From Patescibacteria group bacterium (GTDB lineage Bacteria > Patescibacteriota > Minisyncoccia > Phycocordibacterales > Phycocordibacteraceae), in the NCBI GenBank assembly GCA_030837225.1, contig JAUPKX010000007.1, positions 606 to 64,605 on the forward strand: 64,000 bases of DNA, given 5' to 3'. This document shows, piece after piece, positions 6,433 through 49,992 of the stretch. The notes beneath the pieces are model-generated. The model saw nothing but the letters and a program-made list of their open reading frames with translations, was not told the DNA's origin and did not search any database. Position 1 is the first letter of the stretch. Each line of letters opens with the position of its first letter. A program made the translations under genes and the position numbers.

Positions 6433-8115
6433 CTATGCATCCGGACGATCAGAGAGGACGGGTCCGGAAGGCTTGAGCGCGGTCGATGGCTTCATGCGCT
6501 TCAGGGAGTCAACGAGATCCTTGAACTCGCGGTTCGCGAGAAGGGCAAGGACCGCCGCCGCAACCATAAGACCCACCATACCAGCAATGAAGGCCTCGGT
6601 GAAGACAACGAGAAGCGTGGTCGCTGGTGCAAGATTCCCGAGGAACGAAAGCACACCATACGCAGCTGACCCACCAAGGATTGCAGAGGCTGCTCCCTCA
6701 AACATCGGACGGACCAAGGAACGTGCAACACCCGGCGCAACCGCACTGAGCGTAACGAGTGCGAATACGCCCGTTGCTACCGATCCGAGCATGCTGCCAA
6801 GCGCGATGAGAAGGATGGCCGTTCCGGGGACTCCCTCAACACGAAGGAGTGCCTCAACAAAGTACCCAACCGCCGGGAACTGTGCGGACAACATCAGAAG
6901 CCCTACTGCCGAAAGAACGGCCACAACGAGTCCCCCAATCTGAATCAATAATGGGTTCCAGGATTTCTTGGCGGCATAGAACGCGCGGGATGCGAGCAAC
7001 ACAATACCCTGCGCCATAAGACCAATAACAAGGAGCGCGAGTATTGCTGCTGTGAGTCTCGTTGCATCCCAATCAAAGGCACCGGTGCCGAGCACGATAC
7101 GCACAATGTGCGCTCGCAACACGAGAATAAGCACCGAGAGAATCGCAGACCAAAATACAATGTGTCGTGCTGCTGCAGACAACGTCGCCTTGAACGCGTC
7201 GTATCGCTTAGCTTCCATGCTTTCGGCCAAGACCGGGAATGCGGCGGTTGCATAGGACGCGGCAATAAGGGAGAGCGGTACCGCCTGAAGATTCTGTGCC
7301 AGCGAGAACACGGCGATGCTTCCCTCACCCGTTCTTGCTGCAAGGATTGTCAGGATAAGTGCCGTAACCGATCCCATAGCGAGCGCCAGGGAACGTGGGA
7401 CCGAATCGCTCATAACACTCCAAAGCACCTTTGGAGACGGGATAACGAGTCTTGGGAACATCCGTTCCTCAACCAAGACCGGGATATGGATAAGAAGATG
7501 CGCCAAGGCACCCGCCAACACTCCAATACCAATACCAGGAAGGCCATAGAGTGGATACAGGAGCACTGTGCCCGCAATGATGCCGAGGTTGTAGAGCACC
7601 GGCGAAAGCGCAAACAGGAAGAAGCGACGGCGCACCTGCGTCACACTCGTAACAATTCCCGAAAGCCCGAGCAGTATCGGCTGAACAAGAAGGATGCGTG
7701 CGAGTAGCACGAACCCTTCTGCGTTCGGAGAATCAATTGCTGCCGGGAACAACGCAAACAACAACGTCGGCGCGAAGAGCGCGAGCACAAGACACAGCAA
7801 CCCTCCTCCGATAAAGAGGAAGGATGCAGTTTGCGAGATGAGCTCTTGCGATTCTTTTCGTGTTCCTCCCGCTATCCGCGGGATGAGGACGTACGCTGAG
7901 ACTAGGGACGCAACGAGTGCGAACACCAGGTCTGGAACTTTGAATGCTGCGTAGTAGAGATCGAGTACGTCACCCGCCCCGAAGCTGTGGGCGAACAATC
8001 GGTCTCTCAAAAGAGCGAGTGCCTGAGACGCAAGCGTCAGCCCAGCAAGCACGTACGCGGCCTGATGTAGGCCGCGTACGGGTGCTGTAAGCGAGGTGAG
8101 TATCTTTCGTACCAT
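6433..8115 (-). CDS. murJ: lipid II flippase MurJ (MviN family)
   Basis: 560 aa, ~14 TM helices; N-terminal MurJ signature ...DLYYAAFKVPDLVFAL... Confidence 0.8.
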   Translation of the reverse strand: MVRKILTSLTAPVRGLHQAAYVLAGLTLASQALALLRDRLFAHSFGAGDVLDLYYAAFKVPDLVFALVASLVSAYVLIPRIAGGTRKESQELISQTASFLFIGGGLLCLVLALFAPTLLFALFPAAIDSPNAEGFVLLARILLVQPILLGLSGIVTSVTQVRRRFFLFALSPVLYNLGIIAGTVLLYPLYGLPGIGIGVLAGALAHLLIHIPVLVEERMFPRLVIPSPKVLWSVMSDSVPRSLALAMGSVTALILTILAARTGEGSIAVFSLAQNLQAVPLSLIAASYATAAFPVLAESMEAKRYDAFKATLSAAARHIVFWSAILSVLILVLRAHIVRIVLGTGAFDWDATRLTAAILALLVIGLMAQGIVLLASRAFYAAKKSWNPLLIQIGGLVVAVLSAVGLLMLSAQFPAVGYFVEALLRVEGVPGTAILLIALGSMLGSVATGVFALVTLSAVAPGVARSLVRPMFEGAASAILGGSAAYGVLSFLGNLAPATTLLVVFTEAFIAGMVGLMVAAAVLALLANREFKDLVDSLKRMKPSTALKPSGPVLSDRPDA

Positions 8116-29187: not shown

Positions 29188-29415
29188 ATGGCATTCACCA
29201 AAGCCATTGGACTCGGGATAGCTATTGTCGTCCTCAAACTACTGCTTCCCGGTGTCCTTGCCGAGATAGAACATACCGCCATCGCGTTCCTTCATGGTGC
29301 GCAAGTCTCCGCAAGTGTCGCAACCGACCTTGCCGCGAGTGCCGGGCATGTACGATTCAACAATGAACCGTTTGCCCTCCCTCGTGTCCCTGAGACACGC
29401 CCAGAAGCACGCTAG
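29188..29415 (+). CDS. small membrane protein, hypothetical
   Basis: 75 aa with N-terminal TM; plus-strand terminator 11 nt downstream supports plus-strand transcription. Confidence 0.3.
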   Translation: MAFTKAIGLGIAIVVLKLLLPGVLAEIEHTAIAFLHGAQVSASVATDLAASAGHVRFNNEPFALPRVPETRPEAR

Positions 29416-29459: not shown

Positions 29460-29461
29460 AT

Positions 29462-29488
29462 GCTGGCTGTCTGGGACGATATTCGAAC
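29462..29488 (+). repeat. 27-nt repeat copy A (gctggctgtctgggacgatattcgaac)
   Basis: Near-identical to 48392..48418 and 49063..49089 (24-26/27 matches); lies between terminator and the ATG at 29515. Confidence 0.7.
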
Positions 29489-29514
29489 GAATCTAACTCA
29501 GGTAGACTAAGGTT

Positions 29515-30159
29515 ATGGATTTCAATGGAAGAGCAGTGCGAATAGTTGCTGGTCAGCACGGCAACGAGAAGGGTCCAGTCAGGGCGCTTATCTCTCGAGG
29601 ATGCGACTTTATTCTAGGTAACCCAGAAGCCGGAGAACGGAACGTCCGGTACATAGATCAGGACCTAAACGCTTCCTACGGCGTAGACACCGGCACCTTT
29701 GAGTCAAAGCGTTCTCAGAAGATACTCGATCTTATTTCACCTGAAGACGTTGTTATAGATTTTCATACAACTTCCGCTAAGGGACCACCTTTTGCAATCC
29801 TTACGGATAAAGTGATGCTTCCTCTAGCTGAACGAACTGGGCTGGCCCATGCTGTCTTAATGACGCACAACATAAAGAAAGGTCACGCACTTATAAACGT
29901 ACGCGATGGTATCGCCGTTGAGATTTCTGGGTATGACACGCAGGAAAGTTTTGATACTTCCCTTTCAGTACTTGATGCTCTCGCATCAAGGAGATCATCT
30001 CCTCTTACGCTATACGAAGTGTATGGCCTTATAACTGAACCTGGAGTGTATGAGAACTTTGTAGAATGCGAAGACGGCTTCTATCCTGTTCTAGTAGGAG
30101 AAGAGTCGTATGACTTCATCGGACTAAAAGCACGCAGGATTGATTGGCTAACAGACTAA
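29515..30159 (+). CDS. succinylglutamate desuccinylase/aspartoacylase (AstE/AspA, M14-like) family protein, minimal 214-aa form
   Basis: VAGQHGNE zinc-ligand motif near N-terminus; second His region IDFHTT. Confidence 0.7.
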   Translation: MDFNGRAVRIVAGQHGNEKGPVRALISRGCDFILGNPEAGERNVRYIDQDLNASYGVDTGTFESKRSQKILDLISPEDVVIDFHTTSAKGPPFAILTDKVMLPLAERTGLAHAVLMTHNIKKGHALINVRDGIAVEISGYDTQESFDTSLSVLDALASRRSSPLTLYEVYGLITEPGVYENFVECEDGFYPVLVGEESYDFIGLKARRIDWLTD

Positions 30160-30572
30160 ATATCGAACCTATTCGTCCCCTCCTCTTCCCGATCATTCAC
30201 TCCATGCTCCGGCAACCCGAAGTAGTGCCCTACCTCATGCCATAGCGTTTCTCGCACCACAATACGTACCGCATCGCGGAATGCACGATCCATCTCGGTC
30301 GCCTCTTCCAATATTGGAAGTCGATAGAGAGTTATTGTGTCTGGCATGGTTATACCAACACCATACTCGCTCCCGCGCTCCGTAAGAGGAATACCATGAT
30401 AGAGACCGAGCAAGGACTCTCCTTCCTCAAGCCCTTCCTCTTCGCGAACCAAGTCACTCACATCGTCTTCAATGAGGAGCGCGAGGTTGGTTATCTTTTG
30501 TTTGAACTTGCCGGGAACGCGTTCCCACTCCGCATTAGCTATTTGCTCGAATTCCTGTTCACTCATATCCAT
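30156..30572 (-). CDS. zincin-like metallopeptidase (DUF1025-type, HExxH)
   Basis: HEVGHYFG motif near C-terminus, acidic N-terminal half; 138 aa. Confidence 0.6.
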   Translation of the reverse strand: MDMSEQEFEQIANAEWERVPGKFKQKITNLALLIEDDVSDLVREEEGLEEGESLLGLYHGIPLTERGSEYGVGITMPDTITLYRLPILEEATEMDRAFRDAVRIVVRETLWHEVGHYFGLPEHGVNDREEEGTNRFDI

Positions 30573-46936: not shown

Positions 46937-47538
46937 CCGTTATACCGCTTCCCGTATTCGCTGCGGTATCTTCCGCTGTCGAGGAAGTTATCGCTCCCAT
47001 TCCCTCAGGCCCCGTTATGCTCGTTATGGGGTCTCTGGCGCAGATACAAGGATATTCCTTATGGATGCTGTTTGGTCTCTCAATTGCAGCAACCATCGGA
47101 AAGCTCGTTGGTGCGCTTGTGGTTTATATAATCGCAGACAAGACGGAGGACTTGCTTTCAGGAAGATTCGCCAAGTTCTTCGGCGTAACCCATGCGCAGA
47201 TAGAATCGTTTGGTGCACGACTTGGGAACGGCTGGAGGGATTACGTACTCCTTACTCTCCTAAGGACACTCCCCTTTGTTCCGAGTGTCGTCGTGTCGTT
47301 TGGTGCAGGTGCGCTTAAGATTCCACTTCGGCTGTTTATTATCACAACCATTGTTGGTTCGATCTTGCGGGACATGTTCTTCCTGTACCTTGGGTATGCC
47401 GGCATTGGTGCCGCTGACGAGATTCTTGCCTACTTCTCTACCGTTGAGTCCTTCCTTCAAGGAGCGATAGTTCTTAGCGTTGTTGGTGCACTGGGATTCC
47501 TTTTCTACACACAGTACAAGAAGACGCATACGAAATAA
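46897..47538 (+). CDS. DedA/VTT-domain membrane protein
   Basis: 213 aa; DedA-like G..R.IPF..SFGAG region. Confidence 0.7.
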   Translation: MFQYLEELLLSLATVIPLPVFAAVSSAVEEVIAPIPSGPVMLVMGSLAQIQGYSLWMLFGLSIAATIGKLVGALVVYIIADKTEDLLSGRFAKFFGVTHAQIESFGARLGNGWRDYVLLTLLRTLPFVPSVVVSFGAGALKIPLRLFIITTIVGSILRDMFFLYLGYAGIGAADEILAYFSTVESFLQGAIVLSVVGALGFLFYTQYKKTHTK

Positions 47539-47539
47539 G

Positions 47540-47573
47540 AAAAGCCAGGCTTCGTTTGAAGCCTGGCTTTTCT
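47540..47573. terminator. bidirectional rho-independent terminator
   Basis: aaaa-GCCAGGCTTC-gtttg-AAGCCTGGC-tttt. Confidence 0.8.
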
Positions 47574-48230: not shown

Positions 48231-48374
48231 ACCCCTACAAGGTTGTTTCCGTTACAGGCTTATACGGTTTCTAGCTCATTCACTAGGAGAGAGGGGGAGA
48301 ATTTTGTTGAATACAAAGATGGCTTCTTTCCGATACTGGTCGGAGAAAAATTGTATGACTTCGTCGGACTATAG
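48231..48374 (+). pseudogene. decayed 3' fragment of an AstE/AspA-family paralog (homologous to C-terminus of 29515..30159)
   Basis: Translation PYKVVSVTGLYGF*LIH*ERGENFVEYKDGFFPILVGEKLYDFVGL* aligns with ...PLTLYEVYGLITEPGVYENFVECEDGFYPVLVGEESYDFIGLK of the intact gene; two in-frame stops. Confidence 0.55.
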
Positions 48375-48391
48375 GCGCGCGAAATTGATTA

Positions 48392-48418
48392 GCTGACCGT
48401 CTGGGACGATATCCGAAC
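48392..48418 (+). repeat. 27-nt repeat copy B (gctgaccgtctgggacgatatccgaac)
   Basis: Directly follows pseudogene fragment; direct repeat of copy C 671 bp away. Confidence 0.7.
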
Positions 48419-48439
48419 TGCCTGATACAGGTACATGCT

Positions 48440-49021
48440 CTAGATACTCTTCTTTCTTCTACCGAAAGAGGCGAGCGTGGCGATGGACCCGCTCTCGAAG
48501 AGGTAATAAATCGGGAAGACTAGATTGGCGAAATTCCAGACTGTTGTGGAGAAAAGACTCATCAAACTTGCGATGAAAGTCAGATACCAACCCAGGGCAT
48601 TCTCCGAACGTGGCACACGATAGGTCTTGAGAATAGTCGGGACCGCAGCCATCATATTTGCCACAACAGCTAAGAGCAGTGCTACGTTCGGATCACCCGT
48701 GAAATACCAGCCGCACATGGCAATGATTGCCAGACTGAGACAGAGGTATTCGCTTATTCCGTGTTTCCTATACCCATATCCAAACAGACAGAACACTACA
48801 ATCAGGAAAGTATTTGTCGTAGTCGCGATAAGGAGCAGCACAGACCAAGAAGCGCCCACTGAAAGCTGAGCAGCGATGGCGATGCACTGCAGTACAGTCC
48901 ACAGCGCGAAAGAAATGACATTCGGGCGCGTCGTGCCACGCACCATGCTATGTAGATACGGCACGACCGAAAGCACCTGCAGGATTCCTGCAGCGATTCC
49001 TAGCATCAGGTGCCATTCCAT
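48440..49021 (-). CDS. polytopic membrane protein, hypothetical (6-7 TM)
   Basis: 193 aa; bracketed by repeat copies B and C. Confidence 0.5.
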   Translation of the reverse strand: MEWHLMLGIAAGILQVLSVVPYLHSMVRGTTRPNVISFALWTVLQCIAIAAQLSVGASWSVLLLIATTTNTFLIVVFCLFGYGYRKHGISEYLCLSLAIIAMCGWYFTGDPNVALLLAVVANMMAAVPTILKTYRVPRSENALGWYLTFIASLMSLFSTTVWNFANLVFPIYYLFESGSIATLASFGRRKKSI

Positions 49022-49062
49022 GCATTTACTATAGCAATACAGCTACAATAGTTCCTAAAAGT

Positions 49063-49089
49063 GCTGACCGTCTGGGACGATATTCGAAC
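49063..49089 (+). repeat. 27-nt repeat copy C (gctgaccgtctgggacgatattcgaac)
   Basis: 26/27 identical to copy B; 24/27 to copy A. Confidence 0.7.
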
Positions 49090-49185
49090 AACTTTGTTTA
49101 CTTAGGCCATTTCTTGACCCAATCGAGAGTCTCATTGAAAAGCTGCTCTTCAGTTCCCTTTCTATAACTGATCATCCAAACGAGC

Positions 49186-49254
49186 TGCGGGACTAGGACT
49201 CGAACCTAGATAGCATTCTCCAGAGGAATGTGTCCTACCTTTAGACGATCCCGC
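49186..49254 (-). tRNA. tRNA-Gln(CTG)
   Basis: Acceptor GCGGGAT/(G)TCCCGC, anticodon stem CATTC/GAATG with loop CTCTGGA, T-loop TTCGAGT; compact (69 nt), no encoded CCA. Confidence 0.65.
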
Positions 49255-49258
49255 AATA

Positions 49259-49927
49259 CTACGAAGCGTAGTGTCGGAATTCTAGCAAATCAGCTAGATT
49301 TTGCACCTCTTCCTTCCTCGAGACCTGGATATCATATCGTGAGCGGTGCGGATGGAAACCGAGGCCTTGCACCAGGTTAAAGACGATTTCTAGCAGGACA
49401 GGATTCCGATTGGTGAAGAAGAGTTTATGTGTGTAGGTGGCCTCATGATGAGCCACGCATCCTTCTGCCTCGTACAGGCCCCGCAGGAAGCGGATTCGAT
49501 ATCGCTTGCTTTTCTCAATCCAAGCAGGCAGTACGTAGTTTAGATGGGCGCGTGACCCGCAAGGGATACCGAGTCTAGAGCTTATGTTTTTCTCATAGAT
49601 CGTTATGGTCACGGCATTCGTAGCTTTCACTTTCGTAACAAACGGCTCCTTACTAAAGACCCGCTCAACCATTGCAGTGTAGCGCTCGGTAAATCCTACA
49701 CTCGAAAAGTTACCCGTAATACGCAGGGATTCGCACCGAGGATGCTTCCCGATATGTCCGTCTCCGAGAATAACGCCAATAAGTTCAGCGAAGTCTCCGT
49801 TTTTCTCTATAGATTTATACTCACTCTTAATATACCCAAGCCGCTTCTGTTCATCTCTCCATGCTTTAAAATTGTCGAGCTTCTTGGCTCGCATCGTTTC
49901 GGAAATTTTCTTTGCACGCACATCCAT
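49259..49927 (-). CDS. double-motif LAGLIDADG homing endonuclease-like protein
   Basis: Motifs FAELIGVILGDGHIG and IRFLRGLYEAEGCV; AT-richer than flanks; stop codon 4 nt from 5' end of tRNA-Gln on same strand. Confidence 0.75.
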   Translation of the reverse strand: MDVRAKKISETMRAKKLDNFKAWRDEQKRLGYIKSEYKSIEKNGDFAELIGVILGDGHIGKHPRCESLRITGNFSSVGFTERYTAMVERVFSKEPFVTKVKATNAVTITIYEKNISSRLGIPCGSRAHLNYVLPAWIEKSKRYRIRFLRGLYEAEGCVAHHEATYTHKLFFTNRNPVLLEIVFNLVQGLGFHPHRSRYDIQVSRKEEVQNLADLLEFRHYAS

Positions 49928-49992
49928 CTAGAAAGTATAGCGTTCAGGGACAAAACGTCTGAGCGTTTTGCACAAAAACTACACAACTTATC

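Follow-up and report, generated by a model that had tools for sequence, protein, structure and literature searches.

The window analysed here is a 64,000-nt stretch of a Patescibacteria group bacterium (contig JAUPKX010000007.1 of assembly GCA_030837225.1). Around 48-50 kb it contains a tRNA-Gln gene, an adjoining LAGLIDADG gene, two copies of a 27-nt repeat bracketing a membrane-protein gene, and two gene remnants, and related features are found at a second site near 30 kb. The features are as follows.

29461..29488, minus strand: element copy A, ending 26 nt before the ATG of the intact AstE-like gene.
29515..30159, plus strand: intact AstE/AspA-like cassette gene (214 aa) at a second site, among core genes.
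30141..30168 (approximate), minus strand: degenerate element copy D, across the stop codon of the AstE-like gene.
48243..48400, plus strand: 3' remnant of an AstE/AspA-like cassette gene with two in-frame stops; clear homology covers 48297-48397.
48391..48418, minus strand: element copy B, overlapping the last codons of the AstE-like pseudogene.
48440..49021, minus strand: membrane-protein cassette gene (193 aa) of no known family, with a TATAGT box 6 nt before its ATG.
49062..49089, minus strand: element copy C (GTTCGAATATCGTCCCAGACGGTCAGC on the minus strand).
49063..49183, minus strand: 121-nt unit (hydrolase remnant plus element C) that is present or absent between natural alleles.
49090..49183, minus strand: 93-nt spacer holding the 3' remnant of an alpha/beta-hydrolase gene (about 49101-49154) as a 25-codon leftover ORF.
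49184..49255, minus strand: tRNA-Gln(CUG), whose 3' end, ...GTCCCGCAGC, is the proximal border of the cassette array.
49259..49927, minus strand: free-standing LAGLIDADG endonuclease-like gene (222 aa), whose stop codon lies 3 nt before tRNA-Gln.

The initial annotation had listed a decayed paralog fragment of the 29515 gene, the two repeats, the membrane-protein gene, tRNA-Gln and an AT-rich LAGLIDADG gene, and every one of these items was found where it had been placed. The repeats, B at 48392-48418 and C at 49063-49089, are direct, 26/27 identical and 671 nt apart, and no match is expected in 100 shuffles. One correction is that the LAGLIDADG gene is only mildly AT-rich, with 47.8% GC against a window mean of 52.2% (8th percentile). 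Furthermore, there is a third full copy, A, just upstream of the 29515 gene, and the degenerate copy D at the position homologous to B. A profile built only from other genomes found A, B and C (nhmmer E values of 2.4e-12, 1.6e-10 and 9.6e-12, respectively) and nothing else in the 64 kb. Copy D is not significant by profile and rests on positional homology with B and with the element in locus L054.

The pseudogene fragment at 48297-48397 matches 30052-30152 at 77% identity over 101 nt and is 24/34 identical at the protein level (E 1e-15), and only the C-terminal 34-50 codons are kept. A comparison of the two regions had been proposed in advance, and between 29.0-30.6 kb and 47.9-49.3 kb only the AstE 3' end and the elements match. 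The intact 29515 gene was assigned to the AstE/AspA (succinylglutamate desuccinylase/aspartoacylase) family via PF24827 (AstE_AspA_cat; 39.1 bits against a cut-off of 25, residues 5-89) and has QHGNE, in agreement with the zinc-binding H-x-x-E motif, although it is shorter than typical members. Its neighbours are core genes. The AstE-like gene carries elements at the same two positions in other genomes and in other contexts, as L055 and L051 have an element at the position of A and an AstE homolog in L054 has one at the position of B. An empty site for the AstE cassette was sought among near-identical strains, but the arrangement is fixed in all strain-level contigs that extend past the Zincin gene.

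The membrane protein is hydrophobic (GRAVY 0.87, at least 5 hydrophobic spans). It gave no Pfam or NCBIfam hit, and a 24%-identical homolog sits in locus L030. The tRNA-Gln gene was called by ARAGORN and matches the Rfam tRNA model at 55.5 bits, and the synteny MetK-DUF1761-tRNA-Gln-array is seen in relatives. In the spacer, 18 aa are 83% identical to the C-terminus of ORF 1266-2012 of the relative L034, where it is the second gene after tRNA-Gln.

The LAGLIDADG gene matches Pfam LAGLIDADG_3 at 1.6e-6 and has two motifs, AELIGVILGDGHI with D56 and FLRGLYEAEG with E155, so that GDG and AEG are both kept. A weak alignment to I-DmoI (E 0.03) covers both motifs. More than 465 homologs were found at 53-70% identity, and tRNA-Gln(CUG) follows within 1-15 nt in 7 of 7 contexts. 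The gene is absent from L034, in which DUF1761 is 92% identical. A fixed position and presence or absence between relatives are only indirect evidence for homing; cleavage of a gene-less allele was not assayed. The gene does not track the element: nine element-bearing tRNA-Gln loci lack it, and three loci with the gene and tRNA-Gln (L045/L046, L047 and L162) show no element in the downstream flank available, whereas L048/L049 and L044 have both features.

The repeat is a 27-nt element, GTTCGAATATCGTCCCAGACGGCCAGC on the tRNA strand, with a conserved A six bases before it. The exact 20-mer occurs in 29 stretches, all from Patescibacteria MAGs (Patescibacteria/Paceibacterota), in which the 27 nt are nearly invariant while the flanks are unrelated. 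tRNA-Gln lies upstream on the same strand in nine of those loci (L016, L022, L025, L027, L034, L035, L041, L042 and L043) as well as in the window and L048, thus fulfilling the expectation of insertion at a tRNA 3' end, although several element loci show no tRNA-Gln within 3-7 kb. All 16 arrays with two or more copies are uniformly oriented, spacing is mostly 0.4-1.3 kb, and 20 of 31 intervals hold a single ORF; 42 ORFs are co-oriented and 10 are not. Of 50 elements, 42 follow a co-oriented ORF within 400 nt, mostly ending 0-85 nt upstream, and only 28 precede a co-oriented ORF. The elements sit mostly just after the 3' ends of 1-3-gene units, and where the flank is visible the array lies downstream of tRNA-Gln.

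One cassette is found in three MAGs, with homology that begins exactly at the upstream element and fades before or at the next one, and with different neighbours. Other cassettes are shared between array positions, and one is duplicated within a single array. The cargo is accessory and includes NUDIX, GNAT, DUF2200, MutH-like, RibD_C and membrane proteins.

Indels between relatives had been named beforehand as a condition for the initial interpretation, and they do occur at the locus. Exactly 121 nt are missing in L001, in L005/L009 and in L006/L010, which come from three samples, but are present in the window and in six SRR240111xx runs. The joints fall in the CAGC shared by the tRNA 3' end and the element, although the deletion could be a microhomology event. 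In L042 the tRNA CAGC is followed by AATTGACTTT, the start typical of a cassette after an element. The other condition set beforehand, that the repeat should not be ubiquitous in the genome, also holds, as there are three significant copies in 64 kb and in contigs of 0.5-0.7 Mb the exact 20-mer falls in a single 8-kb block, unlike REP or other dispersed intergenic repeats.

No recombinase was found in cis. Pfam summaries of 257 ORFs list none among the 25 top families shown per summary, and 36 ORFs examined individually, the window genes and a crude motif scan were also negative. The genes flanking tRNA-Gln are DUF1761/MetK or LAGLIDADG. Searched against Rfam, the element gave no match at E up to 10, and single-stranded DNA folds were not significant (z-scores from -1.4 to +0.2). 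No overall dyad symmetry is evident by inspection, which was not scored; only CGTC/GACG pair, around 3 nt. The likeness of the element to the tRNA-Gln 3' end is not significant beyond the T-loop-like GTTCGA, as only this and the final CAGC are clearly shared, 889 of 5000 shuffles score as well, and the element profile does not pick up the tRNA end. A phage attP was sought in IMG/VR, where the exact 20-mer is absent and the 104 hits to a shorter 17-mer pattern are chance matches lacking the rest of the element. Literature searches by sequence, and on integrons, islands and LAGLIDADG in CPR bacteria, found nothing describing this arrangement.

The initial annotation explained the repeats as target-site duplications or recombination scars, as a deletion that removed most of the paralog, or as endonuclease-stimulated gene conversion, and this is only partly supported. 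The repeats do bracket an inserted gene, and the paralog fragment is what a deletion left behind, but the repeats are not target-site duplications or one-off scars and belong to an element conserved in dozens of other genomes, the endonuclease link has no support, and B is simply the element that normally abuts the 3' end of AstE-like cassettes. We favour, with a probability of about 0.6, the explanation that in a clade of Patescibacteria (Paceibacterota/Parcubacteria) the element marks the distal border of small self-contained gene cassettes, typically with their own promoter, 1-3 ORFs and often a terminator, stacked in one orientation downstream of tRNA-Gln. In this view, the window holds a short, eroded array consisting of tRNA-Gln, the hydrolase remnant, element C, the membrane-protein cassette, element B and the 3' remnant of an inverted AstE-like cassette whose distal part was deleted, while the intact AstE-like gene, flanked by A and D, is the same cassette type at a secondary site. 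Cassettes would be inserted and excised by site-specific recombination, with strand exchange at or next to the terminal CAGC and the tRNA-Gln 3' end (...GCAGC) as primary entry site, by an unidentified enzyme encoded elsewhere in the genome. The analysis demonstrates the element family, the array architecture, the cassette shuffling, the exact indel, both gene remnants and the LAGLIDADG-tRNA linkage, whereas recombination as the mechanism, the crossover point and action in trans are inferred; no circular or excised intermediates were observed. The LAGLIDADG gene is regarded as an independent feature, a conserved, polymorphic partner of tRNA-Gln(CUG).

A bolder and doubtful extension is that these bacteria have an undescribed integron-like system, in which each promoter-bearing cassette carries an unstructured 27-bp double-stranded site, the tRNA-Gln 3' end is the primary insertion site, and the trans-acting enzyme is not an IntI-type integrase. 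It could conceivably be the LAGLIDADG nuclease conserved immediately upstream of tRNA-Gln.

Among the alternatives, the least unlikely is that each repeat is an att scar left by successive integrations of larger integrase-bearing islands at tRNA-Gln, which later decayed to single genes. The direct orientation next to the tRNA 3' end, the T-loop-like start GTTCGAAT and the CAGC end shared with the tRNA are in line with this, the gene remnants show that decay does occur, and tandem accretion with partial-tRNA repeats is known for tycheposons. However, the repeat is not a copy of the tRNA 3' end, none of the 16 arrays shows an integrase or integrase fragment among the families listed or by motif scan, the 27-mer is better conserved than anything around it across divergent genomes, and the units are regular, complete promoter-ORF-terminator modules whose homology begins at the elements.

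It is also unlikely that the element is merely a regulatory or structural signal, such as an operator or UP-like site for the promoter that often follows or a 3'-end signal for the preceding gene. The very high conservation, a -35-like box (TTGACT or TCGACA) that often starts 1-3 nt after the element, and the position of copy A support this idea. Against it, 22 of 50 copies have no co-oriented gene downstream and 13 face a gene on the other strand, orientation is uniform whatever the gene strand, the exact 20-mer falls in one block of the large contigs, Rfam and folding were negative, and the element coincides with homology breaks and an indel border.

Equally unlikely is shuffling by general homologous recombination after DNA uptake, with the 27-mers and the tRNA gene as short homology anchors and no dedicated enzyme. 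Saccharibacteria, within Patescibacteria, are naturally competent (10.1101/2023.05.02.539146), and no recombinase was found. A length of 27 bp is near the minimum for RecA-dependent exchange, which was not tested here. Yet the indel joint uses only 4 shared bases, neutral anchors would not stay invariant across species, and the uniform asymmetric orientation and position right at gene 3' ends suggest a recognised site. Finally, target-site duplication, or conversion tracts made by the neighbouring LAGLIDADG endonuclease cutting the repeat, is very improbable even though that gene adjoins the tRNA heading the array, keeps its catalytic residues and co-occurs with the element at a few loci, since the 27-mer recurs in 29 foreign stretches with unrelated flanks, nine element loci lack the gene, and three loci with the gene show no element in the flank available.

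Patescibacteria have tiny genomes, no classical mobile elements or recombinases turned up in the loci examined here, and how the group acquires accessory genes appears to be poorly understood. A clade-wide array of swappable cassettes, anchored at tRNA-Gln and punctuated by one invariant 27-bp site, would be a concrete and testable route for gene flux in this group. It may also point to a recombination enzyme of a new type, and as the site is short, asymmetric and double-stranded, it could be useful as a tool. Separately, the fixed LAGLIDADG-tRNA-Gln(CUG) pair is a clean case for studying either homing next to a tRNA gene or domestication of a homing endonuclease.

The LAGLIDADG gene resembles free-standing homing endonuclease genes beside conserved genes, such as the seg genes in the phage T4 tRNA region, in its fixed spot next to a conserved tRNA gene, its presence or absence between relatives and its intact catalytic residues. 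It differs in being chromosomal in bacteria, at 53-70% identity over hundreds of genomes, with unknown target and activity, and it may be domesticated.

The pdif modules of Acinetobacter plasmids and other Xer-dependent (IMEX) elements are likewise short modules of 1-3 genes, bounded by sites of about 28 bp and moved by a recombinase encoded elsewhere. However, dif-like sites have two 11-bp arms in dyad symmetry around a 6-bp centre and flank modules in alternating orientation, neither of which is seen for the 27-mer. They are located at the terminus, and there is no GC-skew switch at 48-49 kb.

The tRNA-seeded genomic islands and tycheposons of Prochlorococcus (bioRxiv 10.1101/2020.12.28.424599) are also variable islands next to a tRNA, with successive insertions that push older ones outward and repeated att motifs and degenerate remnants scattered in the island, in a streamlined genome with few classical mobile elements. 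Tycheposons carry integrases and replication modules and their repeats are partial tRNAs of about 40 nt, whereas here the units are 0.4-3 kb and cargo only, no integrase is found, and the repeat is not a tRNA copy.

Chromosomal integrons (IntI, attI and attC cassette arrays) share the one-way array of small, mostly single-gene accessory cassettes, the conserved site at the 3' end of each cassette, a distinct primary site at the head of the array, cassettes that recur in different positions and genomes, and similar kinds of cargo (GNAT, NUDIX, unknowns), such that the tRNA-Gln 3' end would play the role that attI plays against attC. They differ in that no IntI or any tyrosine recombinase was found next to the array and in that attC is an imperfect palindrome of 57-141 bp with R''/R' core sites that folds as single-stranded DNA and is conserved in structure, while the element, at 27-33 nt, is conserved in sequence and has no hairpin. 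In addition, the cassettes described here carry their own promoters, and the head of the array is a tRNA gene.

The sequence bears out what the initial annotation described at this locus, namely a paralog fragment, two direct repeats around a membrane-protein gene, a tRNA-Gln gene and a LAGLIDADG gene, and the features relevant here are as follows.
29462-29488: repeat copy A, a third copy
29515-30159: intact AstE/AspA-like gene
about 30141-30168: decayed fourth repeat copy D, across the stop codon of that gene
48392-48418: repeat copy B, the 27-mer GCTGACCGTCTGGGACGATATCCGAAC
48440-49021, minus strand: ORF encoding a very hydrophobic 193-aa protein with no family match
49063-49089: repeat copy C, 26/27 identical to B, direct and 671 nt away
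49184-49255, minus strand: tRNA-Gln(CTG)
49259-49927, minus strand: 222-aa ORF matching Pfam LAGLIDADG_3

No such repeat copy is expected by chance. The LAGLIDADG ORF aligns weakly with I-DmoI over both motifs and keeps GDG and AEG, but the gene, listed as AT-rich in the initial annotation, is only mildly so (47.8% GC against 52.2%). The fragment before B is a real relic of a paralog of the 29515 gene, being 77% identical over 101 nt, or in 24/34 residues (E 1e-15), with two in-frame stops. Near the locus, a strong bidirectional terminator with a 16-bp stem (47538-47573) lies between the VTT/DedA-like gene and the transglycosylase-associated gene. -10-like hexamers (TAGACT, TATAGT and TATACT, within 29501-29514, 49022-49036 and 49928-49942) lie exactly 6 nt before the ATG of the AstE-like, membrane and LAGLIDADG genes, respectively, and a similar box precedes the first gene after tRNA-Gln in L034, the locus from the closest other species (L numbers denote the loci compared); these may be leaderless transcripts. 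Cumulative GC skew over the window (1-64000) falls steadily to about 61 kb and then turns up, with no switch at the tRNA-Gln locus.

The 3' end of the intact AstE/AspA-like gene aligns with the pseudogene right into repeat B, and B is therefore the normal 3' neighbor of that gene type. With D across its stop codon, the 29515 gene is thus bracketed by A and D, just as the membrane gene is by C and B. The exact core GTCTGGGACGATATYCGAAC occurs in 29 stretches of the species-representative genome set, all of them Patescibacteria, Paceibacterota, Parcubacteria or Adlerbacteria MAGs, and several copies often lie within a few kb. Across 52 distinct copies, the 27 nt GTTCGAATATCGTCCCAGACGGCCAGC (tRNA strand) are nearly invariant and an A six bases upstream is also conserved, while the flanks are unrelated. 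Ubiquity of the repeat in the genome had been set out in advance as evidence against the original reading, but in contigs of 0.5-0.7 Mb the exact core falls in a single 8-kb block, and a profile built without the window recovers A, B and C (E 2e-12 to 2e-10) and nothing else in 64 kb. The element has no Rfam match and no significant fold, no copy was found in viral contigs, and literature searches by sequence gave no trace of it.

In 9 of the loci retrieved by the core pattern, plus the window and L048, a tRNA-Gln gene lies upstream on the same strand, often within the synteny MetK-DUF1761-tRNA-Gln. All 16 arrays with two or more copies are uniformly oriented, with intervals mostly of 0.4-1.3 kb, and 20 of 31 intervals hold one ORF. 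In 42 of 50 copies, the element follows a co-oriented ORF within 400 nt, mostly at 0-85 nt and often after a terminator hairpin, whereas only 28 of 50 have a co-oriented gene downstream and 13 face a gene on the other strand. Many cassettes begin 1-3 nt after the element with a -35-like box (AATTGACTTTT...), and in L042 the same start follows the CAGC of the tRNA directly. A motif of unknown function, TTGAGATAGGTTCGGACTCC, recurs just upstream of the first gene after tRNA-Gln in two distant genomes (L044 5829-5848 and L045 5921-5940), and a similar sequence follows an element in L032 (about 6808-6828). In L044, from a more distant lineage, a shorter variant of the element (TTATCCGAATCCGAGACGGCCAGC, 6437-6463) follows the first gene downstream of tRNA-Gln, with the 3' half AGACGGCCAGC being the best-kept part.

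Genes carried between the elements are accessory and include NUDIX, GNAT, DUF2200, PhnB-like, MutH-like, RibD_C, nucleoside deoxyribosyltransferase-like and membrane proteins.

Comparison of loci provides evidence that the units move. One cassette is present in three MAGs (L015, L034/L038 and L042), where homology starts exactly at the upstream element and fades before or at the next one, and the neighbors are unrelated. Other cassettes are shared between different array positions, such as the first gene after tRNA-Gln in L027, which lies before an element in L040. The L024 array (reverse strand) contains the same cassette twice, at 41-435 and 1695-2089, carrying a 121-aa nucleoside 2-deoxyribosyltransferase-like ORF followed 2 nt later by the element. 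One element in L015 (4828-4880) is split by a 22-nt insert flanked by a duplicated AGACGG, which may be a hybrid left by a deletion between two neighboring elements. Close relatives of the AstE-like gene carry an element 25-26 nt before the ATG (L055 and L051), and L054 carries one at the stop codon, followed by a further element. These lie in other genomic contexts, with L055 downstream of tRNA-Asn.

In the window, the 93 nt between tRNA-Gln and C contain a 25-codon leftover, the last 18 residues of which are 83% identical to the C-terminus of an alpha/beta-hydrolase gene that is the second gene after tRNA-Gln in L034. The locus therefore reads tRNA-Gln, hydrolase remnant, C, membrane cassette, B, and inverted AstE-like remnant. 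An identical organization without indels in relatives was the other outcome that had been named as contradicting the original reading; instead, near-identical strains come in two forms. The window and six SRR240111xx assemblies have the long form, while contigs from JGI 3300043411, GCA_020049755.1 and SRR35185575 lack exactly 121 nt (49063-49183). In the short form, the sequence reads tRNA...GTCCCGCAGC|ACTTTTAGG, such that the membrane cassette abuts the tRNA and the joint falls within the CAGC shared by the tRNA end and element C. This is the pattern expected if the unit of content plus distal element is excised between two recombination sites, although a 4-nt microhomology deletion cannot be excluded.

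The AstE cassette at 29.4-30.2 kb lies among core genes (BipA, YceG, a DEAD-box helicase, DsbA and PAP2) and is present in every strain-level contig that extends past the Zincin gene. In the JGI 3300043411 strain (L165 3658-3885, equivalent to window 29188-29415), the 75-aa ORF upstream of element A is not called and a 36-aa ORF on the other strand is called instead; the small gene may be disrupted there.

The LAGLIDADG family has more than 465 members at 53-70% identity, all of about 211-250 aa. In all seven independent contexts examined across divergent Patescibacteria (window 49256-49927 and loci L044, L045/L046, L047, L048/L049, L162 and L163), the gene ends 1-15 nt before a tRNA-Gln(CUG) gene while the upstream neighbors differ, which suggests co-transcription with the tRNA and a target within or next to the tRNA gene. 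The gene is absent from nine element-bearing tRNA-Gln loci, one of which is L034, where DUF1761 is 92% identical and is followed by a promoter, a leader hairpin and the tRNA. Conversely, L045/L046, L047 and L162 have the gene but no element in the 2.4-4.9 kb available, whereas L048/L049 and L044 (the shorter variant site) have both. The two features therefore share the tRNA-Gln locus but do not depend on each other in any visible way. The gene looks like a free-standing homing or domesticated endonuclease with a fixed position, the target of which was not tested here.

The best supported explanation, to which we assign a probability of roughly 0.6, is site-specific cassette recombination at the 27-mer by an enzyme encoded elsewhere, with exchange near its CAGC end and the tRNA-Gln 3' end as the primary site. 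The main weaknesses of this inference are that no recombinase was found among the ORFs searched, that the site shows no overall dyad symmetry by inspection, and that its resemblance to the tRNA end is not significant. Decayed classical tRNA-targeting islands are an unlikely alternative, and a purely regulatory element or exchange by general recombination on short anchors are each somewhat less likely still. The interpretation in the initial annotation, as far as it invoked the endonuclease or a target-site duplication, is very improbable.

Literature searches found no description of such a system. Site-bounded cassette arrays as such are known, and we consider the present arrays to differ from those described, with a real chance that they represent a new system with a new enzyme. 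The layout works like an integron, with a primary site followed by a one-way array of cassettes, each ending in a conserved site, but it fails both defining tests for integrons, as no IntI was found among the ORFs searched and there is no folded attC. Although it also lacks the partial-tRNA repeats of tRNA-seeded islands and tycheposons, and their integrase was not found among the ORFs searched, it resembles these in location and accretion.
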